A stretch of 32,000 nt of DNA from Desulfobulbus propionicus DSM 2032 (lineage in GTDB: Bacteria > Desulfobacterota > Desulfobulbia > Desulfobulbales > Desulfobulbaceae). Position 1 is the first letter of the stretch; every line of letters begins with the position of its first letter. The stretch covers positions 90,001 to 122,000 of the forward strand of contig NC_014972.1 of assembly GCF_000186885.1 (NCBI RefSeq), in the 5' to 3' direction. The translations under genes and the position numbers were made by a program. The notes under the pieces were generated by a model that saw only the letters and a list, made by a program, of their open reading frames with translations, was not told the origin of the DNA and made no database searches. This document shows positions 8,474-27,227 of the stretch, piece by piece.

Positions 8474-8550
8474 GCTCCAGTAGCTCAGGTGGATAGAGCG
8501 CAGGATTCCTAATCCTGGTGCCGCAGGTTCGAATCCTGCCTGGAGCACCA
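8474..8550 (+). tRNA. tRNA-Arg, anticodon CCT, with encoded CCA
   Basis: Hand-folded cloverleaf: acceptor GCTCCAG/CTGGAGC, D arm GCTC-AGGTGGATA-GAGC, anticodon arm CAGGA-TTCCTAA-TCCTG, variable GTGCC, T arm GCAGG-TTCGAAT-CCTGC, discriminator A, CCA. Confidence 0.9.
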
Positions 8551-8556
8551 TTAAAT

Positions 8557-8602
8557 AAAGGCCAAAAGCTCAAGAAGACTGAGCTTTTGGCCTTTTCTTT
8601 TT
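8557..8602 (+). terminator. Rho-independent terminator after the tRNA
   Basis: Perfect 15-bp stem AAAGGCCAAAAGCTC / GAGCTTTTGGCCTTT with a 9-nt loop, followed by TCTTTTT. Confidence 0.8.
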
Positions 8603-8662: not shown

Positions 8663-8710
8663 TTGCGCCCAAAATTGCGCCCAAAACTGCGCCCGGATTT
8701 ACGCCCAAAA
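8663..8710 (+). repeat. Four direct copies of a YGCGCCC(AAAA) motif directly upstream of the integrase reading frame
   Basis: TTGCGCCCAAAA TTGCGCCCAAAA CTGCGCCC..ggattt..ACGCCCAAAA, ending at the ATG at 8710. Candidate arm-type recombinase or regulator binding sites. Confidence 0.6.
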
Positions 8711-8768
8711 TGGCAACCGTCACGAAACGAAAGAGGAAAAAAGCTTTGTTTATAAAGCGGAAATCCGA

Positions 8769-9761
8769 ATGAAAGGATTCCCCTGCCTGTCGCAAACCTT
8801 TGATCGACTGTCAGAGGCGCAACGATGGGCGGAAGATACGGAATCTCTTCTTCGGTCAGGAGGGCAGATCACCGACAATGATGTTCCCGAGGAACTGACC
8901 TTTGTGGACGCACTTGACAGGTACGAACTGGAGGTCTCAAACCGGAAGAGGCCGAACACCAAAATACGGGAAAGAACCTCAGCAAACCGCCTTCGAGAGC
9001 ATTTCTCCGGATTGAAACTAAAAGAAATCACGCCGTCGCTGGTGGCAGCTTTCCGCGACAAGAGACTGAAAAGTGTAGGTCCTTCAACCGTCCAAAAAGA
9101 TCTTGCCCTACTCTCCCATCTTTTCACTATTGCCAACGCAGAATGGGCCTTGGACATCAAGAACCCTGTCGCCACAATCAGAAAACCGGCCAAACCGGAT
9201 AGCAGGTTACGCCTTCTCAGCAAGGATGAGGCACGGCATCTCCTCGAGACCTCCAAGCAAAGCCGCAACAAAAAGCTCTATCATTTCCTGCAGCTGATGT
9301 TGCACACGGGGATGCGACCATCAGAAGCAGCAGGAATAACCTGGGGGCAAATAGATATTGATGCCCGAATTATTGACCTGACAGTGACAAAGACAAAGCC
9401 AAGGCGGGTACCGTTGACGGTAAAGGCGGTTGAATTGCTCCTGGAACTGATGCCGGATCAATACGAGAAAAATTCCTTTGTTTTCCTGCCCAACAATTGT
9501 TCGGAGACACTCCGCAGAAGACCAAACCTGTTTTTTCGACGTGCCTTCTGGAATGCCCTGAAAAAGGCAAACATCGAAGATTTTCACATGCACGATCTCC
9601 GACATACCGCAGCAAGCTACCTGCTGATGGCCGGAGTCGACCTGCGCACCCTGGCGGACATTCTCGGTCACAGTACCATGCAGATGGTTCAGCGCTACAC
9701 CCACCTTCTGGACGACCACAAGTTAAAGGCGATCGATAAAATCGAGCTCTTGGGGAGATAA
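8769..9761 (+). CDS. int: Tyrosine recombinase / phage-type integrase (N-terminus apparently frameshifted, see findings)
   Basis: Catalytic region HTGMRPSEAAG...HDLRHTAASYLLMAGVDLRTLADILGHSTMQMVQRYTHL (the R..HxxR..Y signature). It lies immediately 3' of a tRNA gene. Confidence 0.9.
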   Translation: MKGFPCLSQTFDRLSEAQRWAEDTESLLRSGGQITDNDVPEELTFVDALDRYELEVSNRKRPNTKIRERTSANRLREHFSGLKLKEITPSLVAAFRDKRLKSVGPSTVQKDLALLSHLFTIANAEWALDIKNPVATIRKPAKPDSRLRLLSKDEARHLLETSKQSRNKKLYHFLQLMLHTGMRPSEAAGITWGQIDIDARIIDLTVTKTKPRRVPLTVKAVELLLELMPDQYEKNSFVFLPNNCSETLRRRPNLFFRRAFWNALKKANIEDFHMHDLRHTAASYLLMAGVDLRTLADILGHSTMQMVQRYTHLLDDHKLKAIDKIELLGR

Positions 9762-9885
9762 CCCAAATACTCTTTCTTCCCGGCAGCATGGTCTTGGCTG
9801 ACCATCAGCCTCCCCTCCCCTTGCACACCTGAATCTGGCCTGCATCGGTCCGATTTCATTTCGACAACAAACCATCCCGCTTGTA

Positions 9886-10236
9886 TCACTCCGACGGGCG
9901 CTCCTCGACCACCCGCAAATACTCCTCGATCTCCCGGGGAGTGTAGTAGCGGAAGTGGATGCGGTGGCAGAGTTTGTCGGTGAAGTCGGAGAAGGCCATG
10001 ACGATCTCGCGTCCCTCGGCCATCAGGGCCTCGCCTTCCTCGTAGGAGATGCCGCCCATCTCGCCGAGCCGCCCCTTGAAGTTGGCATAGGCCAGATCGA
10101 ACTGGCGCAGGATGTTACACAGGGTCGCGCCCAAGGGCGAGTTGATGAGCAGCACCCGCGAGCCCCGTTCCTTGACCAGGCTGATCTTGCGCTCCTGGAT
10201 CTCCTGCGACGAGAGCCGCTGCTTTTCTTCCGCCAT
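9886..10236 (-). CDS. 116-aa hypothetical protein; last gene of the five-gene operon
   Basis: GGGAG lies 6 nt upstream of the ATG at 10236 and the gene starts 18 nt after the upstream stop. Balanced amino-acid composition. No recognisable motif. Confidence 0.6.
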   Translation of the reverse strand: MAEEKQRLSSQEIQERKISLVKERGSRVLLINSPLGATLCNILRQFDLAYANFKGRLGEMGGISYEEGEALMAEGREIVMAFSDFTDKLCHRIHFRYYTPREIEEYLRVVEERPSE

Positions 10237-10254
10237 GATGGACTCCCTGGTTGG

Positions 10255-10971
10255 TTAGGCGGTGATCCGCCGGGCGTTGCGCCGGACCCGGTACCGCTGC
10301 CAGCAATCGAGCAGGTACACCGAGCCATAGGGAAAGACCGCGGCCAGTACCATGAGCAGGGTGCTCCTGGTGGCCAGCGGCAGCAGGTGCGGCCTGATCG
10401 TCATCATCCCCTCATATATTTCCCGGGCGTGGGACATCCACCGGCTGGCCATGCGCCAGACGTTCTCCGGCGTGGCCAACCGATCCGCCAGCAGGTAGAG
10501 CACGTAGACGAGAAAGGCCTTGAGCAACAGCGACAGGGCCCGGCCGGTGAGCAGGCTGTTGACCCCCTTGCGGGTGATGTTGCCCACGAAGTAGCGGCTC
10601 AGGTAGCTGCACATGGCGGTGTTGATGATGAGCGGCAGGTAGGGGATGGCGCCGAAGAACAGCTGGCCGGACCAGTCGAGGTGCTCGAACACGAACGGCA
10701 GCAGGTAGAGGTGGAACACCGGGAACAGCAGCACCAGCGCCAACCCCTCATGAAAACCGCTCTTCACGCCGATCTTGAAGAAATCGATGGTCCGCTCCAA
10801 GGTGAGGAACTCGGCCGGGATGTTCTGGCCCTTGCTCTCGATCACGTAGAACTGCTGGATCTCGGAGATGGCGCTGAGCAGGTTGCGCGGCCGCTCGATC
10901 CGGCCGCCGTCGGTGGTGATGATCGGGGCATTGGTGTCGTTCGCGCCCCGCGACTCCCGGTCCCTGGCCAT
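10255..10971 (-). CDS. Polytopic membrane protein (about 4 TM helices), hypothetical
   Basis: Hydrophobic stretches GLALVLLFPVFHLYLLPFVF, LFFGAIPYLPLIINTAMCSYL, ALSLLLKAFLVYVLYLLA and TLLMVLAAVFPYGSVYLL. The start overlaps the upstream stop (TGATG). Confidence 0.65.
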   Translation of the reverse strand: MARDRESRGANDTNAPIITTDGGRIERPRNLLSAISEIQQFYVIESKGQNIPAEFLTLERTIDFFKIGVKSGFHEGLALVLLFPVFHLYLLPFVFEHLDWSGQLFFGAIPYLPLIINTAMCSYLSRYFVGNITRKGVNSLLTGRALSLLLKAFLVYVLYLLADRLATPENVWRMASRWMSHAREIYEGMMTIRPHLLPLATRSTLLMVLAAVFPYGSVYLLDCWQRYRVRRNARRITA

Positions 10972-12383
10972 CAGTCGCCCCTATCCTCACCGGCCCAGGG
11001 CGTGACCTTGACGATGTCGCGCAGCAGGTCCGGCTTGGCCCGTTCCATCTCGGCGATGGAGCCGAACGGCTCGGCGTGGAACGGGGTGTAGTAGCCGCGC
11101 AGTTCCTTGCCGAACCTGCGAGTGAGCAGGAAATAGCCGCCGAAGTAGCTGTCGCGGATGAGGTGGCGGGCGATCACGTCCGGTTCCTGCCGCAGTCGTT
11201 GAACAACGGCCAGCAGCACCCGCCGCATGGTCGGGTCGTCCGCGGCCATGGTGGCGATCTCCATGCAGCCGGCCCGTTCCGCCTGTTGGCGGGCCGCCTG
11301 CTCGAGCGCCTTGACCTGGAAGTAGACCAGGCCGTCAGCCATGGAGAAGGCGAGGAAACGACGACCGTCGAGCCGGTTGATGACCGGCTTGAGCAGGGCC
11401 AGGAACCCGGCGACATCGAACCAGCGGGAGATGTCCAGCGGCCGGGGTTTTTCCTCGCGCGCCACCTCCGGCCCGGTCGTCTCAGCAAAGATCTCCTTCA
11501 TCCCCTGCCGAGCTGTCCCATCCTCCACCACCGCAGTCCCTTCCTTCCCATCCACCTCCTGCAGCCCGCCGGCCGCCATGCCCTCCTCCAGTTCCTGCTG
11601 CCGTGCCAGCTGGTCCGCCTGCTTCAGCGTCTTGCCCAGCAGCCCGTCGGCCACCTTGTGGTGCAGCTTGATGGCGCGGAGGATCTCGTCCTTGCGCCCC
11701 AGCTCCTTGAAGCCGGGAACCCCGGCCAGCACCGTGCCGGCGGCCAGTGGATGCTCGCCCAGGGCGTAGAGTGTGCCACGTGCGGACGGCAGCTTTCCCA
11801 GGTCATGGGCGAGCGCAGCCACCAGGGTGTCCGGGATCACATGCCAGGCCTGGTTGTCGGCAAGCAGCCGCACCACCTGGTCAGCCACGTCCAGGGAATG
11901 ATCGAGCAGGGTGGTCTGCGCCAGCAACCGGTAGGTGTTTGCCTCCCAGGCGGCCTCGACATCACCGCGCACATCCACCACCGAGGGACAGTCGCCCTCC
12001 CGGTCGAGCAACTGCACCAGCTGCCGGCAGACCGCTCCCTGCTCGTGGCAGGTGCGGAAGAAGGGCCATTCGTCGATCTGGCGGAGAAAGGCCGCGGCCC
12101 GCGGATGGGCCACGGCGGGGGGTTCCACTGCAACACGGGCAAGCTGTTCGTCCCGCCACAGGTGGACCAGGTCGGCAATATGCACGGTCCGGTACACCGG
12201 GGACCTGGTCCAGCACGCGGCCAACTCGCCCAGGGCGATCTCCCGGGTGTCCGGCGGCGCGGTGTCCCCTTTACGGAGCAGCACCGCCCCGGCCAACCCG
12301 GCCAGCACCACGGCTAGGCCAAGGAACAGGTCCGGCCAGCCGAACACCTCCCGCAGCGCCGTGAACACGTCGTCACCGGCCAT
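10971..12383 (-). CDS. Membrane-anchored HD-domain protein (possible MOBH/TraI_2-like relaxase core or nuclease/phosphohydrolase)
   Basis: N-terminal TM LFLGLAVVLAGLAGAVLL. HD signature LLDHSLDVADQVV...AALAHDLGKLP...IKLHHK...LKQADQLAR. The C-terminal domain resembles TraI_2_C by eye only. Overlaps the upstream gene by 11 nt. Confidence 0.6.
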   Translation of the reverse strand: MAGDDVFTALREVFGWPDLFLGLAVVLAGLAGAVLLRKGDTAPPDTREIALGELAACWTRSPVYRTVHIADLVHLWRDEQLARVAVEPPAVAHPRAAAFLRQIDEWPFFRTCHEQGAVCRQLVQLLDREGDCPSVVDVRGDVEAAWEANTYRLLAQTTLLDHSLDVADQVVRLLADNQAWHVIPDTLVAALAHDLGKLPSARGTLYALGEHPLAAGTVLAGVPGFKELGRKDEILRAIKLHHKVADGLLGKTLKQADQLARQQELEEGMAAGGLQEVDGKEGTAVVEDGTARQGMKEIFAETTGPEVAREEKPRPLDISRWFDVAGFLALLKPVINRLDGRRFLAFSMADGLVYFQVKALEQAARQQAERAGCMEIATMAADDPTMRRVLLAVVQRLRQEPDVIARHLIRDSYFGGYFLLTRRFGKELRGYYTPFHAEPFGSIAEMERAKPDLLRDIVKVTPWAGEDRGD

Positions 12384-13734
12384 CCCGACTGACCGTCACC
12401 GCGGCCAGGTCCGGAAAGGTCACCCGCAGGGTGGCGTCCTCGACCGTGGCGGTCCGGCCCCGGTAGGTGCCGGAGTAGGTCACCAGAAAGAGCTCGCGCG
12501 GCGCCAGGTTGAGGATCTCGGTGTGGCGGACGCGCACCTCCTCGGTCTCGCGGATACTGAGTCCGCCGCCCACCGAGATGATCGGCGAGAACCGCCGCTC
12601 CTCGCCCAGGTGCTCGGACACGTAGCTGGCCGTGTGGGCGTCGGGCACGCGCATGAACAGCTTGGTGTTGCAGTTGTCGAGGATGGTGTTGGCCCGGTCC
12701 TCGCCCACCTCGGCGTGCAGCTGGCTGATCGACTGGCAATAGCCGTGGATGAACACGCCGGCGCCGCCGGCCTTGGCGAACAGGTCCTCGATGCCCTGGT
12801 AGAGCACGGACTGGGCCTCGTCGATGTGCAGCACCAGGGGCGGCTCGACGTTGCGGCCGCTGGAGTAGACCCGGCCGACAAAGGCCTGGATCATGGAGAT
12901 GATCACCTTGCCGGCGGTGTAGGCGGCCCGCTTGGTCAAGAGCGACCCCAGCTGCACCACCAGGATGATGCCCTGGCCCTGCTCGAGCCGCTGGATGAAG
13001 CGGTTCTCGTCGGCCTTGCCGATGATCCGTCCGACATTGCCCGAGGTCAGCTCGGTGAGCGCCACCCGCAGCGAACTGGCCACCTTGGAGTAGTAGTCCG
13101 CCGGCGTGGAGAGGATCTTCTCCATGTCCCGGGAGAGCTGCTTGGCCTCCGGGGTGTTGATGTAGTCGATCTTTTCCTTCAGCCGTTCCAACTCCTGGTG
13201 GCTGATGTGGTTCTTGATGTCGTTGAGGTTGAACGAGGGGGTTTTCCCGGCCTGTGCGGCCAGCAGGATCAGGGCCTGGACCACCACCAGGCTGACCTCG
13301 TAGGCCACGCCGAAGAAGTAGGGCTCGCGGCCGACGGCCACCCCGGCGGTGATGTGGGCGACCAGTTCCTCGGGCATACAGTAGGAGGAGAGCGGGTCGA
13401 GGATGGCGCTGTACTGGGGGAAGATCGGGGTGATGAGCATGAGGTCGGCGAGCCGGTCGGTCTCTTCGGCCAGCTGGGTGATCTTGGAGAACAGGCCGAT
13501 GTCGCCCTTGGGGTCGATGGCCACCACCGAGTAGCCCTTGCGGATATCCTGCTCGAGGATGTGCTCCATGACCCGGGTCTTGCCCACCCGGGTGGTGCCG
13601 AAGCACCAGCAGTGCCCCTTGCGGGCACTGTCGGGAAAGCCCAGTTCGAGGATCGCCTGGGGATGATCGAGATGGACGCCGGTGCCGATGTGGGTCCAGG
13701 GCTCGGGTCGGCTGTCCTGGTGGCGGGCGCTCAC
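12373..13734 (-). CDS. Soluble TraD/VirD4/TrwB-like (FtsK-HerA superfamily) P-loop ATPase
   Basis: Walker A GTTRVGKT, VVAIDPKGD, Walker B LVLHIDEAQSV, then TKLFMRV. GTG start at 13734 overlaps the upstream stop (GTGA). There is no N-terminal hydrophobic segment. Confidence 0.7.
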   Translation of the reverse strand: MSARHQDSRPEPWTHIGTGVHLDHPQAILELGFPDSARKGHCWCFGTTRVGKTRVMEHILEQDIRKGYSVVAIDPKGDIGLFSKITQLAEETDRLADLMLITPIFPQYSAILDPLSSYCMPEELVAHITAGVAVGREPYFFGVAYEVSLVVVQALILLAAQAGKTPSFNLNDIKNHISHQELERLKEKIDYINTPEAKQLSRDMEKILSTPADYYSKVASSLRVALTELTSGNVGRIIGKADENRFIQRLEQGQGIILVVQLGSLLTKRAAYTAGKVIISMIQAFVGRVYSSGRNVEPPLVLHIDEAQSVLYQGIEDLFAKAGGAGVFIHGYCQSISQLHAEVGEDRANTILDNCNTKLFMRVPDAHTASYVSEHLGEERRFSPIISVGGGLSIRETEEVRVRHTEILNLAPRELFLVTYSGTYRGRTATVEDATLRVTFPDLAAVTVSRDGR

Positions 13735-14468
13735 GGTTGCCGCAGGATGCGGACCTCGACCCGCTCGCGCAGTTCACGGTCCACGCTGAGGATGGCCGCC
13801 TTGGGCAGGCGTCGGTCGGTGACCACCAGGCTGCGGTGGCCGACGTAGCGCTTGAGGCAGTGGCACCTGATCCGGTCGGCCTGCGCGCCGAGGTGCTCGC
13901 GCAGCAGGGTCTCGACCAGGGTTTTGGCCACCCGGTCGAGCACCACCTGGACCCGGGCAATGCCGTTTCGTTCCATGGCTTCGACCCGGCGCAGGTGGAA
14001 GGCGCGGCGCTGGCCGACCTGGAACCCGCCTGCACACCGCTCATGCACGCCGATGCGGTTCAGCGGGCAGACACCAAGGACCGACTCGCCGGGGAGGATC
14101 TCCGCCGCCACGATCAGGTTGCCCTCCGCGTCGCTGCCGACGATCTCGCCCCAAAGCAGGTTGTGTTCACAGAGCTTGTAGCGCCGGACCAATTGGCAGA
14201 CCCCGGACGTCTCCAGACGACGTTCGAGAAAGTCGCTGAGCCGCGCCCTCCCCAGCAGTGCCGGCAGGTCGATGACCCGCTGGTGGACGATACCGTTCAC
14301 CCGAGCGTAGGCGACCGCTTCCAGGCACAGGTCCTGCCGGAAGTGGACCAGCACCTCCCGCCGGTACCAGCGGGAGAGCAGGGTGGAAAAGGCGGACTCG
14401 ATCTCCAGCAGCACCTCGGCCCGGGACAGGCCGTGCCGGCTGGCCAGCGACGCGATGATGGACTGCAT
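13731..14468 (-). CDS. Truncated NusA-like protein (NTD + S1-like + partial KH-like); first gene of the operon
   Basis: MQSIIASLASRHGLSRAEVLLEIESAFSTLLSRWY parallels the NusA N-terminus ([35 protein letters not shown]). A later S1-like segment is followed by RVQVVLDRVAKTLVETLL, resembling the NusA SRSxPxxLxxLF segment. Confidence 0.55.
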   Translation of the reverse strand: MQSIIASLASRHGLSRAEVLLEIESAFSTLLSRWYRREVLVHFRQDLCLEAVAYARVNGIVHQRVIDLPALLGRARLSDFLERRLETSGVCQLVRRYKLCEHNLLWGEIVGSDAEGNLIVAAEILPGESVLGVCPLNRIGVHERCAGGFQVGQRRAFHLRRVEAMERNGIARVQVVLDRVAKTLVETLLREHLGAQADRIRCHCLKRYVGHRSLVVTDRRLPKAAILSVDRELRERVEVRILRQP

Positions 14469-14775
14469 GCGAGGTGCCCCCTGGAGCGGTTAGGGATGCG
14501 GCCGGAAAGTCCGGTCTCATCCCTTTTTTCAGGGGGGAGGACATCTGGGAAATTTTGGATGAGTCCTAGGCATGCGAGGAGCGTTGTCAGACGACGAATG
14601 CTGAACCCCTGGATTCTGTCAATAGGGGAAGGAAACAGCACGGCTCGCCATGCGATTGAACGGTGTCGTTCCCGGGTACCGTTGAAAAAGCCGGGGTTCT
14701 TTGTTGGTGATGCAATTGGCCGTGTAGGAAGCGATGCCGTCTTCGGTGCGCGCCTCGTTGCTGCCTTCCTGCTGA

Positions 14776-15933
14776 TCAGGGGCCGTCGTCATCGGTAAAC
14801 ATGCCGAGGCGAACCCGGATCGGCTCGATAATCCCTATCTGGCGTGAAAAATTGTTCAGCCCCTTGAGCAGCGGCGGGGTGATGATTTGGCCCTTGGCAA
14901 CGACCAGTGTCCCGTTTTTTGCCAGCACGTCGTCCAACGCCACCATGCCGACCCCGACCTGGTCCACGTGCAGGCTCAGCACCTGTTCCGGGCTGGCTGC
15001 CCGGACCGTGGCCAGGATGTTTAATATTCTTGGATTATAGACCTTTTTTTGCGACCGCATCAAGCCAAGCGCCTCGCCCCGGCCCTTGCCCTGAAAGAGT
15101 AGGCGGTCATACTCGGTGGCCGCTTTCAGCATCTGGGCGCCAAGCAGGATCTCCTCGTACATCGTTTCCCGCATGGCATCGGTGAATTCATCGAACCGTT
15201 TGCGCTGCAGGGCGATCATTTCAGTGACATTTTCCATCCTGGGAATCCGCTCCAGCAGTTTCCTCGCCGTTTCAGGGTGAGTATCGAACAATTCGGCCTC
15301 GCCAGGGGTCAGTTCCTGACCGGTGTAAAACTTGCTCAAAATTTCGCCCGGCAGGGTGATGCAGCCGATCTGGGAGAGCAGCGCGGCCATCTCGTACTGC
15401 CAGGGCTGCGGCAGGCGCAGCGACTCGGCGATGCGGACTGTGTACTCCCTGATGCGCAGTCCGGAACTACAGGCCAGCGGGCTGGTCATGCCGAGCAGTT
15501 CGCTGAGTACGCTGACGCAGCCCTTGAGCGTGTTCTGCAGCAGTTCCTGTTCCGCGGTGATCAGGCGGTGCTGGCGCAGGGCCAGCACCAGCGAGGTGAC
15601 GAACAGGGCCGGCGGGCAGGGCTTGGCGAGAAAGCGGAAGATCTGGCCGGTGTTGACCGCGTCGATGGCGGTTTCCCGGTCGGCGTGACCGGTGAGCATG
15701 AGGCGCACCGTATCGGGGTAGAGGTCTTTCACCAGCTTGAGCAGTTCAATGCCGTTCATGTTCGGCATGCGCATGTCCGAGACAATGACCGCGAACGGCC
15801 CATCTTCCTTGAGTTGCCGCAGGGCGGCCTCGCCGCTCTCGGCGGTCCGAATTTCAAAACGCCTGCGCAGGTGCCGCTCGATGGAACTGAGGATAGCGGG
15901 CTCGTCGTCGACGAGCAGGATTTTCTCGGTCAC
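14776..15933 (-). CDS. Response regulator: receiver domain plus degenerate HD-GYP-like output domain
   Basis: REC: ILLVDDEP...VIVSDMRMPNMNG...LTGHAD...FLAKP. The output domain aligns with HD-GYP, but LHDIGK is replaced by LSQIGC and the HHE..GYP block is absent. Confidence 0.75.
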   Translation of the reverse strand: MTEKILLVDDEPAILSSIERHLRRRFEIRTAESGEAALRQLKEDGPFAVIVSDMRMPNMNGIELLKLVKDLYPDTVRLMLTGHADRETAIDAVNTGQIFRFLAKPCPPALFVTSLVLALRQHRLITAEQELLQNTLKGCVSVLSELLGMTSPLACSSGLRIREYTVRIAESLRLPQPWQYEMAALLSQIGCITLPGEILSKFYTGQELTPGEAELFDTHPETARKLLERIPRMENVTEMIALQRKRFDEFTDAMRETMYEEILLGAQMLKAATEYDRLLFQGKGRGEALGLMRSQKKVYNPRILNILATVRAASPEQVLSLHVDQVGVGMVALDDVLAKNGTLVVAKGQIITPPLLKGLNNFSRQIGIIEPIRVRLGMFTDDDGP

Positions 15934-18961: not shown

Positions 18962-19050
18962 CCGGCCCCTGATGCTGAGGGCGAAAGTCCCCAGACGGTA
19001 CATTCGCCAGCAAACGGCGGGCCACTAAAAACAATCAAATGGAGCGAACA

Positions 19051-20852
19051 ATGAAGAAGCGATTTGTAGCCATCAGTCTCACCTTGGGCTCGCTGGCCCT
19101 GGCCGGCGGAGCCCAGGCCGAAACCCTGGTTGTCACTCAGAAGGTGACCGTGGGCAGTAACACGACCGTGACCCAGGGGGATCAGAACACTGCTGCCATT
19201 CAGGCCATGAACGCGGTCAATACTCTCGGTACGCTCAACGGGACCAGCCAGAAGGTGGAGATGGGCACCTACACCCTGGGCTTGAGCCAAACGGGGGCGA
19301 CAACAACCACTTCGTCCCAGGCCGCGAACACCGTCAAAGCCGACACCATAAGCGCAGCCTTTTCGCAGGAGGTGAACAGTACAGCCGCTGCCAGCGCCAT
19401 CGCGCTGACCCAGTCGGCGCAGGGCGTAGCGAATGTCCAGGCCCTCAACCTGGCTGGTGCAACCACGGTCGTTGGCAGTTCGGGTGCGTTCGCCCAGAAA
19501 GTGACGCCGACCGGGGCCGCTGGCGACATCACCTGACCCAGGTCACCGCCACGGGAAAGGACAGTGTGCAGGCGGCCAACGTCCTGGCCGGCACAACTGT
19601 TACCAGTGCGACGCAGGCAGTGGATAACGACACCACCGGCGCGGGGGATATCACCCTGGCACAGGCCACTGGTACCAGCAACATCTCCCAGGCCGTCAAT
19701 CACACCGAAGCAGGGACCATCACAGCCCTCAACCAGAACATCAACACCGTGGAGCTGGTGCTCGGTCAGACCGGCGGGAGCAAAAACTCGCAGGTGGGCA
19801 ACCATGCCAAGGCCCTCACCAATGTAACGACTCTCGCTCAGCAGACGAAAGCTTCCCGCAAGATCGACATGGATCAGGTCACTGGTGGCGATGGCAATCT
19901 GCAGGCACTCAACGCCGCCGAGGTGACCAAGGTCAGCGGTACGGTCTCCCAGACAGTCAGCACCGGCCTTACGAACATCGATCTCAAACAAGAACAGCAA
20001 ACAAGCAGCCAACAGACCGCCAACTACCTGACCTCTCCCGGCACCGTGGCCTCTGTCACCCAGGTCTCCTACTATAACAGCCCCAGAATAGCGACCCTGC
20101 TCCAGGACAACACGACTACCGCCCAGCAGGCCTTGAACTTCATAGAAATGACAGGTGGGGCTGATAAGCTCACCAAGGGAACCCAGACCGTGGGCCTTGC
20201 CACCCTGGACATGGGCCAGGGTGAGACGGGCGCCAACAGCGGCTCCGACCAGGCGGTGAACCTGCTCTTCTTGGACGACAACCTCGTCTTGGCAACGCAA
20301 ACAGTGACAGCGGACATTGATCTCACCCAGGCAAAAGGCGCGGATAACACCCAGGCCGTCAACTCCGTCTCCGGTAAGAACATCACCACCAAACTGACCC
20401 AGACGGTCACTGGCGTCAGCGATAACATGACCCAGGGCGGCGATGGGGCGAGCAATAACTTCCAGGCCGGCAACTTCCTGGATGTCGAGTATGCGAATGG
20501 CACCATCGCTTCCGTCCAGCAGAACTACAACGCCACCACCTTAGCGCGCATGAGGCAGGATGGGATCACTTCGGGCGTGCAGGGGCTGAACGTGATCGAC
20601 GCCTCGCGGTCGGGCGTAAAAGTGACCAGCGCGGACCAGAATGTGGTTGTACCGGCGCTGACCATGCGACAGGGGGAGAGCAAAGGGACTGCGACCAGCG
20701 TCCAGGCGGGGAACACGGTGCTCGCCGGATCCACCGCGGTTGGCGGCAAGGTTGATCAGGACGTGCTCGTCGCCACCACCCTGGCCATGACCCAGGCGAA
20801 CGCCACCACATCCACCCAGGCGGCCAACTTTACCGGCAACCGGCCGCGGTAA
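19051..20852 (+). pseudogene. Secreted Gln/Asn-ladder repeat protein, paralogue A, split by a 1-nt frameshift (frame 1 to the TGA at 19534-19536; continues in frame 0 from 19533)
   Basis: GGAG lies upstream of ATG 19051. Signal peptide MKKRFVAISLTLGSLALAGGAQA. Collinear with paralogue B throughout. ACC-TG here versus ACC-CTG in B explains the frame break. It could be a sequencing error or a genuine mutation. Confidence 0.7.
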
Positions 20853-20904
20853 CCCACTGACCAGGAGCCCGCCCAGGGGGATCGGGGCTGGCGTTGTTGT
20901 TGTC

Positions 20905-21111
20905 GTGGGCGAGAGAACGAGCGCCGACACCCTGGCGTGGCCGTTGGCGGCCCGGGCGGCCTGGGAGACCCTGGCCGCGGAGGGGCGGCAACTCCTTCGC
21001 GAGGGGGCGCCCCCGGCAATCGCGGCCGACAACCGGAACGAACTGCACACCCTGGCCGACCGATTTGCCGCCCGGCGGCTGCCGGTCCTGCAGGCCTTGC
21101 TGGTGGTGTGA
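20905..21111 (+). pseudogene. Relic of the methyltransferase C-terminus (duplication scar)
   Basis: AARAAWETLAAEGRQLLREG....AADN.NELHTLADRFAARRLPVLQALLVV parallels the last ~55 aa of 16951-18462. The rest of the gene is missing. Confidence 0.75.
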
Positions 21112-21155
21112 CCACAGCCCGGGCCGAGCCGACGAACCTCACTCGAGAGACGACC

Positions 21156-21329
21156 ATGCAGACCAATGCCGACCTGTGTTCCGTTCTTGAAAGCGAGACC
21201 GTCCCGACCGCGACGGATGGGGAACGCCGCGACCCACTGGGTGGTCCGCGGGTCATCCTTTACCTGCTGGTGGCCGACCTGTTACTCGTGGCCGCGGTCG
21301 GGGTGACCGCCTGGTGGCTGCTGCGCTAG
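21156..21329 (+). CDS. 57-aa tail-anchored microprotein, copy 2
   Basis: MQTNADL...LGGPRVILYLLVADLLLVAAVGVTAWWLLR, paralogous to 18508-18693 and in the same relative position. Confidence 0.45.
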   Translation: MQTNADLCSVLESETVPTATDGERRDPLGGPRVILYLLVADLLLVAAVGVTAWWLLR

Positions 21330-21587
21330 GGGGGCAGGGCGCGGACTGTCGTCTTGAGCGGTGGCGGAGGGAACCACCGTTCATTCTGAAAGACGGAAGC
21401 CGTGCGCAAGAACCTCGGAGCCGACCCATCAGCATCGGAGGAACGGCGATCCAGAATGCCGCACAAGTCGGAGGTGGTCGCGGAAAAGAGAAAAAATTCA
21501 GAAAAAAAGGAGGATGGGAAAGGAGCCGGCTTGTTGCCAGCGGTCTACAAGAAACTAAAAAGAAAAATGTCGTCTCTGTTCTCTGCC

Positions 21588-21602
21588 TGGCATCGATGTT
21601 GC
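21588..21602 (+). promoter_or_regulatory. Sigma-54 (-24/-12) promoter for repeat gene B
   Basis: TGGCATCGATGTTGC fits TGGCAY-N5-TTGC with exact GG-N10-GC spacing. It lies 82 nt upstream of ATG 21684. Confidence 0.6.
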
Positions 21603-21683
21603 CTTAGCGCTGACAGAGAGAAACGACAGCAGGAGTTACATCACCACAACACATAGCACCAAACCCTAAAAAAGGAGCAAAGT

Positions 21684-23474
21684 ATGAAAAAACGTTATGT
21701 CGCAATCAGCCTGACCCTGGGGTCGCTGGCCCTGGCCGGTGGAGCCCAGGCCGACACCTGGGACGTGACCCAGAAGGTGACCGTGGGCGCAAACACGACC
21801 GTGACCCAGGGGGACGGGAACACTTCCGCCACCCAGGCGATGAACGCCATCGACGTGGAGACCCTCAATGGCACCAGCCAGGCGGTTGAGATGGGGACTT
21901 TTACCTTGACCTTGACGCAAACGGGTGCGTCAACGGCTACTTCGAACCAGGCCGCCAACTATGTTCAAGCGGACACTATTTCTAAAGCCTTTTCGCAGGA
22001 CGTGAACAGTGCGGCGGCAGCCAGCGCCATCGCGCTGACCCAGTCGGCCGTCGGCACTGCCAATATCCAGGCGCTCAACATGGCCGACGGCGGAACGGTT
22101 GGCAGTACGGGAATATTCTCTCAGGAAGTCACCCCTACCGGAGCGGCAGGCGACATTACCCTGACGCAGACCACTACAATGGGCGCTGACAGTGTGCAGG
22201 CAGCGAACTATATCAACGGCACGACCATCACAAGTGCAATCCAGACAGTCGACAACGACAACACCGGTAACGGGGATATTGCCCTTGTGCAGCCGATCGG
22301 GACAGGAAGCATCACCCAGGCGGTCAACTATGCCACGGCTGAAACCATCACCTCGCTTGCGCAGAATATTAAAACCGTGGATCTCGTGCTTGGTCAGGCC
22401 GGCGGGACCAGCAATGTGCAGGTGGGGAACTATGCGCAGGCCACTACAGTCGTTGATACGCTTCTGTCACAGAAGACTGACGCTTCCGGCATGATCGACA
22501 TGGATCAGATCACCGCTGGCTCCGGCAATCTGCAGGCGGTCAATGCCGCGGATGTAAAATCGGTTACCGGCGCTGTCACCCAGGCGGCAACGACCGGCGC
22601 CACGAACATCAATCTTAACCAGAACAACCAGACTAACAGCCAGCAGTTCGTCAACTACCTGACCTCGACCGGAACGGTGGCCTCCGTCACGCAGGATTAC
22701 CTGAATAGCGGTAAGACCGCCACTCTTGTTCAGGACATGGCTACCGCCTCACAACAGGCACTGAACGCCATTGAAATGACTGGTGGCGCTGACGTGCTGA
22801 CCAAGGGAACGCAGACCGTGACCCTCGCCACCTTGAGCTTGAGCCAGGGGGAAACTGCCGATAACACGGGCTCCAGCCAGGCGGCTAACCTGCTTCTGTC
22901 GGGGAACGACATTGCTGAAGCGTCCCAGACAGTGACGGCGGATATCGATGTGACCCAAGAGCTGGGGACCGGTAACCTTCAGGCCGTTAACCTCGCAGCT
23001 GGCATTGACATAACCACCAGCCTCACCCAGACAATCAATGGTACATCCGATACTTTCGAGCAGGGCGGCACCGGCGCCGCAACCAACACCCAGGCTGGCA
23101 ACTACCTGGATGTCGGCGCAACTGGTACGGTTAAATCGGTGGTACAGGACTATAGCGCGACCGCCTCTGTCCTCATGGATCAGGATGATATCACGAGTGG
23201 CGTGCAGGGGTTGAACGTTATTGACGCCTCGGCATCTGGCGTGACGGTGACCAGTGCGGACCAGAACGTCACCGTTCCCTCCCTGACCATGCACCAGGGA
23301 CGGGACGTCGGGACGACAACCAGCGTCCAGGCCGGCAACGCGGTGATCACAGATGCCGTCGCCACCGGAGGCGCGGTCAATCAGGATGTAAGTGTCACCA
23401 CCCTGGCCATGACCCAGGCGAATGGCAACAAATCCATCCAGGCCGCCAACTATGTCGGCTCCATGCCCAATTAA
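21684..23474 (+). CDS. 596-aa secreted Gln/Asn-ladder repeat protein, paralogue B (candidate fibre or amyloid-like subunit)
   Basis: AAGGAG SD. Signal peptide MKKRYVAISLTLGSLALAGGAQA|DT. There are 15 Q-x-x-N motifs (mostly QAxN) spaced 34-43 aa apart (mean 38.2). T/Q/A/N/G-rich, no Cys. Confidence 0.85.
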   Translation: MKKRYVAISLTLGSLALAGGAQADTWDVTQKVTVGANTTVTQGDGNTSATQAMNAIDVETLNGTSQAVEMGTFTLTLTQTGASTATSNQAANYVQADTISKAFSQDVNSAAAASAIALTQSAVGTANIQALNMADGGTVGSTGIFSQEVTPTGAAGDITLTQTTTMGADSVQAANYINGTTITSAIQTVDNDNTGNGDIALVQPIGTGSITQAVNYATAETITSLAQNIKTVDLVLGQAGGTSNVQVGNYAQATTVVDTLLSQKTDASGMIDMDQITAGSGNLQAVNAADVKSVTGAVTQAATTGATNINLNQNNQTNSQQFVNYLTSTGTVASVTQDYLNSGKTATLVQDMATASQQALNAIEMTGGADVLTKGTQTVTLATLSLSQGETADNTGSSQAANLLLSGNDIAEASQTVTADIDVTQELGTGNLQAVNLAAGIDITTSLTQTINGTSDTFEQGGTGAATNTQAGNYLDVGATGTVKSVVQDYSATASVLMDQDDITSGVQGLNVIDASASGVTVTSADQNVTVPSLTMHQGRDVGTTTSVQAGNAVITDAVATGGAVNQDVSVTTLAMTQANGNKSIQAANYVGSMPN

Positions 23475-23487
23475 CCTATTTTCTGGT

Positions 23488-23527
23488 ACCAGCCCCGGGA
23501 AACCGGGGGGCTGGTGTTTCTGGTTTC
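23488..23527 (+). terminator. Rho-independent terminator after repeat gene B
   Basis: GC-rich hairpin ACCAGCCCCGG-gaaa-CCGGGGGGCTGGT followed by GTTTCTGGTTT. Confidence 0.6.
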
Positions 23528-23706
23528 GGGGAAGAGATGGCGGGCACCAGCTGGATCTGATTGAGCACCTGGCAATGGCCTGCGGAACTGAGGCCCCGTC
23601 AGTGGCTGGATTCAGGAGTATCACCGCCTCGCACCACGTGGCTCCACCGTCCTGCCCGGGATGTACAGCGGTGGGCGACAACAGTAACCGGCCGGAGGAA
23701 GGCCTC

Positions 23707-24150
23707 ATGCACAATCAGTGGCGAACACGTCCACCGGCACCACCCGTGCCTGGTCGACGCCCATGGAAAACCATCAGCCGGTTGAAGGCCTTTGCGCTCG
23801 TGGTGGCAGTCGTGCTGCTCGCACCGGACCCGGCCGCCAGCTCGATCCGCAACCGGCTGTCCCCCTCCTACCCGAGCATCCCGCCGGACTACACCGTGCT
23901 GCAGCCTGGCCGTATGGTGGCCGAGGCCAAGGTCGATTTCCCGGCCTACTACGTCGACCGCACCAACGGCTTCCGGGTGACCGCCCCGGATGGCCGACAA
24001 TTCGTGGTCGACAATGTCGAAAAGCCCAAATGCGCTTTCTACGGAACCTACATCAACAGCGAGGAGAACGCCCTCTCTAGTCCGGGCGCGGGCATGACCA
24101 TCAACAGTTCCGTCTACGTGGGGGAGGTAAATTTTGAAAACTGCAGGTAA
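23707..24150 (+). CDS. 147-aa secreted or membrane-anchored hypothetical protein (possible secretion accessory factor)
   Basis: GGAGGA lies upstream of ATG 23707. Hydrophobic segment AFALVVAVVLLAP after a basic N-terminus. Overlaps the next gene by 17 nt. Confidence 0.55.
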   Translation: MHNQWRTRPPAPPVPGRRPWKTISRLKAFALVVAVVLLAPDPAASSIRNRLSPSYPSIPPDYTVLQPGRMVAEAKVDFPAYYVDRTNGFRVTAPDGRQFVVDNVEKPKCAFYGTYINSEENALSSPGAGMTINSSVYVGEVNFENCR

Positions 24151-25165
24151 TACGTTTCGTCGATCGGCCATCAGGGCAGGCGCCGTTCTCTGTGCGCTGG
24201 CGTTTTTGTCCGGATGCGCCAGCGAGTACCGGACCAAGGTCAGCACTGATTTCAAGGAGAAGCCCAAGGTCAGCCAGACGAACATGTCCGGCGCCATCGC
24301 CTGCATGGCCAACACCCTGCAGCACAGCGACACCGCCAGCGCCTACATCCTTTTGGTGCGCGACGTCAAGGACGGCACGGTCAAGGACAGCGACCTGACC
24401 GATGGGCCGCTGTCGGACGCCGGCCGGATCATGCTGCTCAACACCCTGAGCGAGCATCTCTATCCGCACGCCGGCCTGGTACCGGACACCTTTCCCTTCA
24501 TCTACCTGGCAACCGGCCGGGAGGATGTTGGCCTGAACCGGTTCGGCCTGCCGTCGCCGGAGAACATGCAGCAGTTCCTGGGCATCTACGAGCCGATTAT
24601 CCAGGCGGCGCGCAAGAAGAAGAACCTGCCGCCGGTGGGCAACATCGTGCCGCTGGTGATCAGCGCCCAATTTTCCCGCTTCGATTCGGACAACGCCGCC
24701 CAGGACGGCATCGCGCACAATATCGGCACCCGCACCAAGCAGCTGGCGGAAAACGAGGAAGATGACCGCTGGCGCAAGTTCGCCGGCGAGGCGAGCGTGG
24801 GCCTGACCTCCTCGGCCCGGTTGATCTCACTGGTCATCAACCTGATAGACCCGCGCAACAACTTGGTGGTTGCCTCGCAGTCGTTTGACCTGATTTTCTA
24901 CCGCGACAACAAAACCTACCGCCTGCGCGCCGCGCTCGGCGAAGGCTACTACGGGTTCTCCAAGGACAACGTGGTGGTCGAAGGCGTACACAGCGCCCAG
25001 AAGCTGCTCCTCGACGCCGCCGCCCTGTGGATCCTCAACAAGGCCTACGGTGACCAGGAGCGGTTCGCGACCTGCTTCAGCCCGGAGGAACAGCAGGTGA
25101 CCCTGTCACCGGTGGAGTTCCACCAGAAGAAGGAAGAACCGCCCACCGTGGGGAAAACGAAATGA
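24134..25165 (+). CDS. CsgG/HfaB-like outer-membrane lipoprotein (candidate secretion channel)
   Basis: TTG start with GGAGG 6 nt upstream. Lipobox AFLSG|C. Family-like blocks by eye: ILLVRDVKDGT...SDAGRIMLLNTL and LVISAQFSRFDS...LISLVINLIDPRNNLVVASQSF...HSAQKLLLDAAALWILN, compared with E. coli CsgG VSVYNIQDETG...ATAMLVTAL and MVEGSIIGYES...IAVNLRVVNVSTGEIL. Confidence 0.5.
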   Translation: MKTAGNTFRRSAIRAGAVLCALAFLSGCASEYRTKVSTDFKEKPKVSQTNMSGAIACMANTLQHSDTASAYILLVRDVKDGTVKDSDLTDGPLSDAGRIMLLNTLSEHLYPHAGLVPDTFPFIYLATGREDVGLNRFGLPSPENMQQFLGIYEPIIQAARKKKNLPPVGNIVPLVISAQFSRFDSDNAAQDGIAHNIGTRTKQLAENEEDDRWRKFAGEASVGLTSSARLISLVINLIDPRNNLVVASQSFDLIFYRDNKTYRLRAALGEGYYGFSKDNVVVEGVHSAQKLLLDAAALWILNKAYGDQERFATCFSPEEQQVTLSPVEFHQKKEEPPTVGKTK

Positions 25166-25929
25166 TCGGGTGGGGCCACACCTGGTGGATGGCGGCTGTG
25201 GTGGCTCTGCTGCTTTTCGCGGACGAGCCTGCCGCGGCGGACAGCTGGACAGTGACCCAGAAGGCGACGATCGGCAGCCCGACCATCCTGGCCCAGGGCG
25301 ATAACCAGGGATCAACCCAGGCTATCAATGCCATTATGCTCGGGGACGGGGGGACGGTGGTCAAGGCGACGCAGACCGTCGAGGTGGCCGGCGGCCTGAC
25401 CCTCAGCCAGGCCGGGGGCAGCGGCAGCCGCCAGGCCGGCAACCTGGTCGAGGCGGGAACGATCACCGAGGCGTTGCAGACGCTGTCCGCCGGCGCGACA
25501 ACGATTGTGCAGACCACTGCCGGCGACGATAATTGGCAGGCCCTGAACATGGCCAATGCCACCGGAGGCGGTGGCGGTATCGGCTCGATCGGGCAGACCG
25601 CCACGGTCGAGTCGCTCAATTTCGCCCTTGCCGGCGGTGAAGGCAACCGCCAGGCCGGCAACCTCGTGACGGGATCCTCGGCCGGCAGTTCGATAACCCA
25701 GACGCTGACCTGCAGTGGCACGGTGACTTACGCCGACAACTATGTGATCGCCGGAGTGAATAACCTGCAGGCCGGAAACGCGGTGTTCGGGGGCACAAAT
25801 GTCGCCAGTGTGACCCAGGCGTTCACGGCCAACGGTGTGGAGGTGACCGCACCGCCTGAAATCGATGGAGCCAACAACATCAAGGCTGCCAATTACCTGG
25901 AGACGGGCCATGGTTCGCCCGATCCCTGA
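25162..25929 (+). CDS. 255-aa secreted Gln/Asn-ladder repeat protein, short paralogue C
   Basis: The ATG overlaps the CsgG-like stop (ATGA). The N-terminus DSWTVTQKATIGSPTILAQGDNQGSTQAINAI parallels B. Six QAxN/KAAN motifs are spaced 35-39 aa apart. Confidence 0.8.
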   Translation: MIGWGHTWWMAAVVALLLFADEPAAADSWTVTQKATIGSPTILAQGDNQGSTQAINAIMLGDGGTVVKATQTVEVAGGLTLSQAGGSGSRQAGNLVEAGTITEALQTLSAGATTIVQTTAGDDNWQALNMANATGGGGGIGSIGQTATVESLNFALAGGEGNRQAGNLVTGSSAGSSITQTLTCSGTVTYADNYVIAGVNNLQAGNAVFGGTNVASVTQAFTANGVEVTAPPEIDGANNIKAANYLETGHGSPDP

Positions 25930-26576: not shown

Positions 26577-27227
26577 ATGGACAAGAGCGTATTTCTGAAC
26601 AGACGCCGGCCAGAACGGCGCGTGCTCCTCTTCTTCGCCCTGCTTGCCGGCATCCTGGCCGGACCGTTTCAGGGCGAGGCGTCTGCCGCGGATGCGAAGG
26701 GCAATTTCGCGGTGCGCGGCGTTGGCTCGCTGACCTGTCCCCAGCTGGTCAGCTCCCTTACCGCCAAGGACGAACAGGCCAAGCGGGAGTCCATCCTCCT
26801 CTACATAAGTTGGATCGACGGTTATCTCAGCCACGTCAATCGGGGCGAGTCCGCTACCTTTGACATTGTCCCCTTCGTGCAAACCCAGGACATGCTGGCT
26901 GTGGTGCTCACCCAATGCCAGACGCGCCAGGACGTCCTGGTGGAAACGGTCCTCCTCCAGACCCTCGGCGCACTGGCACCGGCCCGGGTGCACACCGATT
27001 CACCCGTGGTCGCGGTGCGTGTGGGTAAACGCGAAGGCAACCTGCGCAAGGAAACCATTCTAGCCATTCAGAACAAGCTGATCGAACGAAATCTGTTCAA
27101 GGGAAGCGCCAAAGGAGAGTTCAACGACGCTTCGCGCAAGGCCCTGGCCGCTTTTCAGAAGTCGGTCAAGCTCGATGGAACCGGGTTCCCGGACGTCGAC
27201 ACCATTATTCGGCTGCTGCTCTCCTGA
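26577..27227 (+). CDS. Secreted protein with a C-terminal peptidoglycan-binding (PG_binding_1-like) domain
   Basis: AAGGA SD. Signal peptide ...LLAGILAGPFQGEASA. C-terminus ILAIQNKLIERNLFKGSAKGEFNDASRKALAAFQKSVKLDGTGFPDVDTIIRLL is typical of PG-binding repeats. Confidence 0.7.
   Translation: MDKSVFLNRRRPERRVLLFFALLAGILAGPFQGEASAADAKGNFAVRGVGSLTCPQLVSSLTAKDEQAKRESILLYISWIDGYLSHVNRGESATFDIVPFVQTQDMLAVVLTQCQTRQDVLVETVLLQTLGALAPARVHTDSPVVAVRVGKREGNLRKETILAIQNKLIERNLFKGSAKGEFNDASRKALAAFQKSVKLDGTGFPDVDTIIRLLLS

Follow-up and report, generated by a model that had tools for sequence, protein, structure and literature searches.

The stretch of DNA analysed here (the window) comprises 32,000 nt of Desulfobulbus propionicus DSM 2032 (NC_014972.1, positions 90,001-122,000), and we use window coordinates throughout. 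Five minus-strand open reading frames (ORFs), termed G1 to G5, are confirmed at 9886-14468 and converge on a tyrosine recombinase gene, which faces G5 and is located beside a tRNA-Arg gene. An earlier note on this DNA had described such an operon within a tRNA/integrase island, and direct reading of the sequence bears out the five genes, their junctions and their convergence on the integrase (Table 1). Its domain guesses, i.e., a protein with NusA-like N-terminal domain (NTD) and S1 segments, a soluble ATPase resembling a type IV coupling protein (T4CP), a membrane-anchored HD protein and a polytopic membrane protein, were mostly right as well. We consider it probable that the operon is the coupling and DNA-processing module of a family of tRNA-inserting integrative mobilizable elements (IMEs) in Desulfobulbales; it is not shown to be a defence system.

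The five genes and their products

The genes of the operon follow each other closely. G1 and G2 overlap by 4 nt (GTGA), G2 and G3 by 11 nt (ATGGCCGGTGA), G3 and G4 have one base in common (TGATG), and the 18-nt spacer between G4 and G5 contains a GGGAG ribosome-binding site. The extent of the G2/G3 overlap depends on the start codon chosen, as the gene call on the near-identical metagenomic contig L001 begins G3 five codons later. Long plus-strand ORFs over the same region (e.g., 11935-13848) are high-GC antisense artefacts, and a choice based on GC3 and RNY favours the minus-strand genes. Window positions 9883-14548 (4,666 bp) are 96% identical to L001 (1423-6088). Between these two copies, G2 differs by 25 synonymous and 0 non-synonymous codon changes, and the differences in all five genes fall mostly at third codon positions. 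Hence, the five genes are, as judged from this comparison, real and under purifying selection.

Table 1. Predicted features of the five-gene module and its integration site (window coordinates).
Feature	Position	Strand	Description
G1	13731-14468	-	245 aa; putative truncated NusA paralogue (NTD, S1, start of KH1)
G2	12373-13734	-	453 aa, GTG start; predicted TraD/VirD4-family T4CP ATPase without N-terminal membrane domain
G3	10971-12383	-	470 aa; N-terminal membrane helix, HD domain, linker, C-terminal domain; candidate nickase at the origin of transfer (oriT)
G4	10255-10971	-	238 aa; polytopic inner-membrane protein; proposed membrane partner of G2 and G3
G5	9886-10236	-	116 aa; small soluble protein, no family match
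Conserved leader 5' of G1	14469-14548	-	travels with the module; contains an inverted repeat; candidate operator/oriT hairpin
Tyrosine recombinase (integrase)	8769-9761	+	Pfam Phage_integrase 4e-35; convergent with the operon
Three 16-nt direct repeats (TTGCGCCCAAAAYTGC)	8663-8714	+	repeat search (family D3); tRNA-integrase spacer
tRNA-Arg(CCT)	8474-8550	+	ARAGORN; integration target, left island edge

G2 matches the Pfam families TraG-D_C (1.3e-17, 64 bits, cut-off 22), TrwB_AAD_bind (2.3e-15, 57 bits, cut-off 20.5) and T4SS-DNA_transf (4.7e-9, 36 bits, cut-off 20.1) and carries a Walker A motif (GTTRVGKT), the sequence AIDPKGD and a Walker B motif (LHIDEA). Its closest families are the TraD proteins of SXT and TOL. 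The scores against NCBIfam SXT_TraD TIGR03743 (2e-48, 165 bits, subfamily cut-off 366) and TOL_TraD TIGR03754 (131 bits, cut-off 648) place it outside both subfamilies. The first 130 residues contain no hydrophobic segment that could represent an N-terminal membrane domain, and the alignment to the TraD models begins past their membrane part. We assign G2, on these sequence features, to the TraD/VirD4 family of coupling ATPases and to the class described as 'T4CP lacking TMD' (transmembrane domain). For some T4CPs without a membrane domain, recruitment via a small membrane protein is assumed (e.g., the TMD-less TraJ of pIP501), and T4CPs that rely on a separate membrane protein are represented by the TraG-TraJ pairs (PMC7434980). 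G2 is also the most conserved of the five proteins, with 84-90% identity in many Desulfobulbales loci and 73-90% over all loci, while G1 and G3 show ~40-60% identity across Desulfobulbales loci.

G3 consists of one N-terminal membrane helix, an HD domain (Pfam HD, 1.6e-6), a variable linker (~residues 270-315) and, at the C-terminus, a conserved alpha/beta domain. The HD site comprises H162..H193-D194..H211..H241-H242..D257; this histidine-aspartate set, like the Walker and DPKGD motifs of G2, had been pointed out in the earlier note. Among 97 diverse members of the G3 family, H162, H193, D194, G196, H211, H241, D257, R261 and N336 are invariant, and Y206, H242 and an LD.EG.CPSVV motif are nearly so. 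The family is large and unnamed, with 945 clusters at 50% identity (E <= 1e-3), 406 of them at E <= 1e-30. G3 is thus predicted to be a membrane-tethered protein with a complete two-metal-type HD site and a second conserved domain. A structural model obtained with AlphaFold2 (AF2) reaches a mean predicted local distance difference test score (pLDDT) of 83; a model built from an alignment of 12 sequences (pLDDT 54) was discarded.

The NusA-like nature of G1 suspected in the earlier note is borne out at the profile level. A family profile of G1 retrieves only NusA chains from the PDB; the best match (E 2.3e-4) is collinear with residues ~10-240 of E. coli NusA and covers NTD, S1 and the start of KH1. 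Yet the NusA model TIGR01953 scores 14.8 bits, far under its cut-off of 253, and KH2, the C-terminal repeats and the greater part of KH1 are missing. Therefore, G1 is best described from its sequence as a shortened NusA paralogue, not NusA itself. The proteins cl682 of locus L071 and cl28 of locus L076 gave no convincing alignment with G1 and were excluded from the profile. In relatives of the module, a protein whose match to a KOW motif is marginal (L071) or proteins that appear KOW/NusG-like from reading their translations and have no Pfam match (L065 and L074) occupy the position preceding the T4CP or G3 gene. L076 encodes a protein carrying a KH domain of the NusA type. In this respect, G1 resembles element-encoded NusG paralogues. 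In the literature library searched, we found no description of an element-encoded NusA paralogue in conjugative systems. IncHI plasmids encode a conserved hypothetical protein of 245-262 aa between mobI and mobH (L088 1610-2829, L090 1507-2759), which is G1-sized but has no detectable similarity to G1 with hhalign.

G4 has three to four hydrophobic helices and a conserved cytoplasmic N-terminal segment. The family can be aligned from Desulfobulbales to Nitrospirota and the plasmid pIAE1, and its genes adjoin G3 in 58 loci; it has no Pfam match, and its profile retrieves nothing from the PDB sequences. As in the TraG-TraJ pairs of the R27 type and in TraJ and TraI of pIP501, a coupling ATPase is encoded beside a multi-helix membrane protein of ~200 residues (238 aa for G4). 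Different from these systems, a membrane-tethered HD enzyme is encoded between the ATPase and the membrane protein, and G4 shows no sequence similarity to the known partners, a comparison made via DUF4400 only; an interaction between G2 and G4 is proposed. The idea that G4 represents the detached membrane domain of TraD found no support, as hhalign comparisons with the TraD N-terminus and DUF4400 were negative. The same holds for G1, G4 and G5 compared by hhalign with the accessory proteins flanking mobH/traD on IncHI and Pseudomonas plasmids, with DUF4400 and with the TraD membrane domain. G5 has no hydrophobic segment and no match in Pfam, NCBIfam, PHROG or PDB. It is kept in 33 copies, always after G4, and is detected only with the closer G3 homologues (Desulfobulbales and related metagenome-assembled genomes, MAGs).

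A recurrent unit at tRNA genes

The boundaries of the module are outlined by its near-identical copies. DNA identity with L001 ends 3 nt past the G5 stop codon on one side and at 14548, i.e., 80 nt before G1, on the other, and identity with L002 stops at 14571. In L001, the 96%-identical module is joined to an unrelated integrase (419 aa, Arm-DNA-binding domain) and a tRNA-His gene, and a third contig holds a copy at 94% identity. Because such a closely related module is found beside a different integrase and tRNA, the 4.67-kb unit appears to have recombined recently between integration modules. The integrase in the window has a GC content of 51%, compared to 63-68% in the five-gene module, and this contrast suggests a mosaic junction between them. 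Homologues of the integrase adjoin G5 or a gene for the DNA-binding protein HU in 22 loci.

The leader that travels with the module contains the inverted repeat I1 (14492-14524; 15-nt arms, 3-nt loop) ~25 nt upstream of the G1 start. Hairpins of the GACCGG/CCGGTC type are located 24-34 nt before the G1 start in L001, L002, L005, L011 and L027. The leader hairpin is a candidate operator or oriT hairpin. At the other end, the TTGCGCCCAAAAYTGC direct repeats in the spacer between tRNA and integrase are possibly binding sites of the recombinase or an excisionase, as candidates only. A perfect hairpin with 16-nt arms is found just past tRNA-Arg at 8557-8595. Directly upstream of the operon and outside the 4.67-kb module, the minus strand encodes a response regulator that carries an HD-GYP-type domain (REC + HD_5; 14776-15933).

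A homologue scan with one genome per species yielded 79 loci with a relative of G3. More than 30 of these, exclusively from Desulfobulbales or close relatives, retain the arrangement G1-G2-G3-G4-G5, which is far beyond chance for independent loci; the earlier note had listed a lack of co-occurrence outside this genome as a refuting result, and this is not what is seen. Past G5, an HU gene (Bac_DNA_binding, 7.6e-33) and a convergent integrase usually follow, and the tRNA beyond the integrase is Arg-CCT, Leu (four anticodons), His, Phe or SeC. Upstream of G1, often past a few variable genes, the loci encode Rad52-like and YqaJ/Cas4-like exonuclease proteins, SSB, RadC, DUF932, HigBA, and ParA with a small partner. 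DUF932 (6e-30) and RadC (8e-41) are confirmed by Pfam, YqaJ is marginal (0.0098), and the other upstream genes were recognised from their translations. These genes are typical of the leading and maintenance regions of mobile elements. In L012, the ParA end and HU both appear to be flanked directly by ordinary-looking genes that do not belong to the element. Many MAGs carry two to three copies of the module, and decayed copies occur in L013, L041 and L043. Extra DNA of ~1.5-2.7 kb between G3 and G4 is seen in L014 (11431-13155), L037 (991-3743) and L027 (11143-12707) and probably represents insertions into the operon.

Families of the type IV secretion system (T4SS) are missing within 10 kb of the Desulfobulbales loci, and none was found among the window ORFs scanned, in agreement with the earlier note, which had seen no genes for mating-pair formation in the window. 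A recombinase is located at the integration site, beside tRNA-Arg in the window and at seven tRNA types elsewhere, and a transfer function, the T4CP, is present without mating-pair genes as far as the element ends are defined. The gene content of the loci is that of an IME and not that of a defence island or a self-transmissible integrative and conjugative element (ICE). The element family looks like one that is devoid of mating-pair genes by design rather than a decayed ICE, which the earlier note had envisaged as one possible origin. IMEs and mobilizable plasmids with a relaxase and a T4CP of their own but without mating-pair genes, such as the CloDF13-type MOBC1 plasmids (PMC7434980), likewise combine a T4CP with a DNA-processing enzyme, and the Desulfobulbales loci share with such elements a tRNA integrase, a T4CP, a candidate DNA-processing enzyme and the lack of a T4SS within 10 kb. 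They differ in that the candidate relaxase falls outside all MOB families and in that the host group and the gene set (NusA paralogue, G4 and G5) are new.

The gene neighbourhood also bears on the other proposal of the earlier note, a system of phage defence or abortive infection in which a NusA mimic acts as sensor or decoy. Here, the operon would be anti-phage or anti-plasmid cargo, in which an FtsK/HerA-like ATPase and an HD nuclease effector act at the membrane and the NusA-like protein serves as sensor. An ATPase, a nuclease and a membrane protein form a common layout of defence systems, and integrase-proximal positions in islands often carry defence cargo. G2 matches the PADLOC model mad8 (2e-15) and marginally HerA (0.034). 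However, the mad8 similarity reflects the common P-loop fold only, G2 is far better scored as a coupling protein, and the other seven genes of the eight-gene mad1-mad8 operon, including the methyltransferase, are absent, which places the locus outside the MADS system. A weak match of G3 to the Cas3 HD model (0.002) completes the PADLOC results. HerA scores of E 0.003-0.03 lie under the cut-offs, and no NurA or SIR2 domain is present in any of the five proteins. The HerA-NurA, SIR2-HerA and MADS systems do pair a P-loop ATPase of the FtsK/HerA/T4CP superfamily with a nuclease-type domain, as the module does, but NurA, SIR2, methyltransferase or kinase partners are absent from it and its context is conjugative. 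BREX-like genes (BrxB/BrxA-like, read from translations) lie past the ParA end in L034 (59-1288), either as cargo or as neighbours, whereas the conserved surroundings consist of transfer and maintenance genes (integrase, HU, SSB, RadC, DUF932, ParA and a recombination module) and not of a defence island. Moreover, homologues reside within plasmid T4SS clusters, and no phage relatives were found. A defence function is thus unsupported, and we consider it very improbable.

Conjugative plasmids and a proposed route of transfer

Distant homologues of G1 to G4 are found among F-type T4SS genes on plasmids and in ICE-like loci of Geobacterales, Desulfuromonadales, Campylobacterota and Nitrospirota. 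G3 homologues are encoded on eight plasmids, each time with an adjacent G2 homologue. Seven of the eight are typed as non-mobilizable, i.e., as lacking a known relaxase, and T4SS genes are present on four of five plasmids inspected. A word-based homologue search with the plasmid-borne G3 retrieved only eight proteins. The gene series lytic transglycosylase, G1 homologue, T4CP and HD protein is found on pPRO1 (Pelobacter propionicus), pIAE1 (Trichlorobacter lovleyi) and pSD (Geobacter anodireducens); a small membrane protein and a G4 homologue are next in order on pIAE1, and TraF and TraH on pPRO1. A Desulfosarcina plasmid encodes TraN, TraU, TrbC and TraF downstream. Locus L071 has G2, G4 and G3 beside TraL, TraE, TraK, TraB and TraV, and TraN is present in L076. 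The plasmid pCIG1485E carries TraL/E/K/B/C/H/N/U/F/G and TrbC together with G2 and G3 homologues and a UvrD-type helicase, and no relaxase is annotated among its 111 features listed in PLSDB. The UvrD-type helicase is encoded separately on both pIAE1 and pCIG1485E. Genes of the cyclic di-GMP (c-di-GMP) type recur near the G2-G3 pair on plasmids, and the G3 homologue of Campylobacter iguaniorum contains a GGDEF domain (L092 6755-7336 and 8701-11103; L081 18958-21654 for these features).

For megaplasmids without a standard relaxase, short HD nucleases have been proposed in a preprint to fill this role (PMC12934698). The plasmids with a G2-G3 pair pose the same puzzle of a missing relaxase. The 'Hodor' gut megaplasmids of that study resemble them, by description, in encoding T4CP and T4SS genes without a standard relaxase and in having an HD nuclease as the candidate. 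The Hodor proteins are tied to TIGR03760 by HHsearch and structure, while G3 is linked to relaxases only via the HD core. In MOBH TraI, the catalytic HD domain is followed by a disordered linker and by a globular TraI_2_C domain at the C-terminus, and part of these proteins carry a membrane-associating helix at the N-terminus (PMC6736028); the layout of G3 parallels this arrangement, which is a resemblance of architecture. G3 may be an unrecognised nickase or relaxase.

On this basis, the following route of transfer can be envisaged. The integrase would excise the element, and G3, held at the inner membrane, would nick one strand at oriT as a functional analogue of MOBH relaxases. The oriT might be located in the 80-bp leader 5' of G1 and include its hairpin. 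Together, G3 and G4 would hold a hexamer of the TMD-less G2 at the inner membrane, as TraJ-type partners serve T4CPs (PMC7434980). They would also dock G2 to the helper T4SS that a co-resident conjugative element of the F type provides; G2 would deliver the strand to this T4SS, which would export it in single-stranded form. For G1, we favour a role in transcription elongation that keeps RNA polymerase reading through the operon, because KOW/NusG-like proteins hold its position in relatives; alternatively, G1 might bind single-stranded nucleic acid at the relaxosome. G5 would be an accessory protein.

A broader version of this proposal is that G3 represents a new non-MOBH nickase family and that, together with the TMD-less TraD, G4 and the NusA/NusG paralogue, it forms the missing DNA-processing module of those F-type plasmids, ICEs and IMEs of Thermodesulfobacteriota, Campylobacterota and Nitrospirota that are typed as non-mobilizable. 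We put this forward tentatively and regard it as possible, with the balance tilted somewhat against it.

Tests of the HD protein, rival readings and other window features

The modules of MOBH relaxase, TraD and TraJ/DUF4400 (SXT/R391, IncA/C, IncHI and related elements of F-type or G-type, among them the TraI of the gonococcal genetic island) are among the closest known counterparts for comparison. In these, too, the gene for an HD enzyme lies beside that of a TraD-type T4CP, a small protein and a polytopic membrane protein are next in order (pSDM007), and F-type T4SS genes, a DsbC-like/thioredoxin gene and a phage-like recombination module are nearby. G3 resembles the relaxases in its layout of catalytic HD domain, variable linker and C-terminal globular domain and in the membrane association known from a subset of MOBH proteins. 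G2, in turn, has SXT_TraD and TOL_TraD as its best family matches. In contrast, the operon has the T4CP gene before that of the HD protein and not the relaxase gene before that of the T4CP, G3 is half the size of the relaxases or less and lacks the large MobH insertions, and its membrane helix is a true one, while G2 is devoid of a membrane domain, G4 has no homology to DUF4400 and a NusA paralogue is present.

Profile-profile comparison of G3 with six MobH proteins aligns the HD core only (69-89% probability, 42-113 columns), and the HD metal-binding motif of the MOBH family is found in G3, in a region that aligns with the MobH HD core at 84-89% probability. As a control, the G3 profile aligns with single MobH sequences at 2e-5 and does not align with HD-GYP proteins (E 0.04-0.1). 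Several results nevertheless weigh against the proposed mobilisation role. G3 and ten distant homologues have no match to TraI_2 (PF07514), TraI_2_C or TIGR03760 at E up to 10. The 3H motif LPASE(N/S/I)HHH that precedes the first HD histidine in MobH is absent from G3, which has GDVE..W..NTY..LA without histidines at this position, and no alignment is obtained with the MobH C-terminal domains. A Foldseek search of the G3 model against PDB and BFVD returned generic HD hydrolases only, at E > 0.1 and with 3KQ5 and 2IPQ absent from the hits; likewise, the G3 profile finds a generic HD hydrolase (2pq7) among the PDB sequences and nothing more. In the G3 homologue of Campylobacter iguaniorum, a GGDEF domain (6e-34) is inserted in the linker. 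With respect to the element as a whole, no attR is found: neither exact or mismatched copies of the tRNA 3' end nor short-word BLAST of the tRNA-integrase spacer reveals the tRNA end repeated anywhere as far as the window's last position, 32000, or, with the same searches, flanking attachment repeats within 10 kb in 19 related loci. As the element ends are undefined for this reason, the limits of the element and hence the absence of a T4SS are not fully established. The copy in the window is also minimal, consisting of tRNA, integrase and the five genes only, without the SSB, RadC, DUF932, ParA and HU genes of other copies.

Since the similarity is confined to the HD core and neither family matches nor the 3H motif are found, we do not place G3 in MOBH, and at the sequence level it would at best be a distant cousin within the HD superfamily. 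The MOBH (TraI_2)-like relaxase that the earlier note had proposed is therefore not supported. Its wider idea of a mobilisation module fares better, as the T4CP, the integrase and the links to F-type T4SSs fit this context well, even though the decayed ICE is not upheld. Overall, the mobilisation reading is supported in outline, with G3 as an unproven non-MOBH candidate nickase.

The principal alternative retains the link to conjugation and differs in the function of G3. According to this alternative, G3 is a signalling or nucleotide phosphodiesterase (e.g., for c-di-GMP or some other cyclic or linear nucleotide) that gates the T4CP or T4SS at the membrane, and the true relaxase is another, so far unrecognised protein. 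The HD domain of G3 matches a generic HD model, the generic HD hydrolase 2pq7 and MobH equally well, and the H..HD..H..HH..D pattern is also typical of dinuclear phosphodiesterases. In C. iguaniorum, an HD-GYP-type protein precedes the T4CP gene, and together with the GGDEF domain in the linker this fits a phosphodiesterase as well as a nickase. EAL, response-regulator or HD-GYP genes are further encoded near the module on pIAE1 and pPRO1 and in the window itself (14776-15933). However, the response regulator in the window lies outside the common module, and G3 is without the HD-GYP signature, consistent with the failed profile alignment to HD-GYP proteins. Moreover, no other nuclease candidate is consistently encoded beside the T4CP, and the Desulfobulbales module has none but G3. 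On balance, we regard a phosphodiesterase as unlikely, although it is the rival with the greatest weight.

A different question is whether the copy in the window is still functional. It might be a stranded remnant of some larger ICE or IME, no longer capable of excision or transfer, which would account for the missing attR copy of the tRNA end downstream in the window and for the lack of the HU, SSB, RadC, DUF932, ParA and recombination genes of fuller elements. The remaining window genes, which encode a methyltransferase, repeat-rich secreted proteins, and peptidoglycan (PG)-binding and Sel1 proteins, are unrelated to the element, and clearly decayed copies are known from the three loci mentioned above. 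A remnant is nonetheless improbable in our view: the five frames are intact, selection against amino-acid change is strong, as seen from the codon differences in G2, and the 96%- and 94%-identical modules in two other contigs, the former with a different integrase and tRNA, indicate recent movement of exactly the 4.67-kb unit.

The preferred reading, i.e., a mobilisation module with G3 as candidate nickase, is relevant since typing tools for plasmids and ICEs judge mobility by known relaxase families. If G3 is a nickase, a class of transfer systems would have been overlooked in sulfate reducers, metal reducers, relatives of Campylobacter and nitrite oxidisers, and mobility in these groups would be underestimated. 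If G3 is a signalling enzyme instead, the connection of DNA transfer to c-di-GMP-type signalling would be noteworthy in itself. The module also provides a natural example in which a coupling ATPase is separate from its membrane anchor. The relevance lies chiefly in conjugation and plasmid typing in non-model phyla and is moderate in general terms.

Apart from the module, the plus strand at 19039-25929 encodes proteins with signal peptides that are rich in T, Q, A, N, G and V and contain imperfect curlin-like repeats (..TQ.G..N.QA.N..). These proteins have no Pfam match, the region has a strong positive AT skew of 0.2-0.29, and the locus may encode a functional amyloid or surface fibres. Next after the run of repeat proteins come genes for a lipoprotein (24134-25165) and for a PG-binding protein (26577-27227). 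The ORFs 19039-19536 and 19566-20852 jointly parallel the 596-aa ORF at 21684-23474, and one copy has maybe been split by a stop codon or frameshift.

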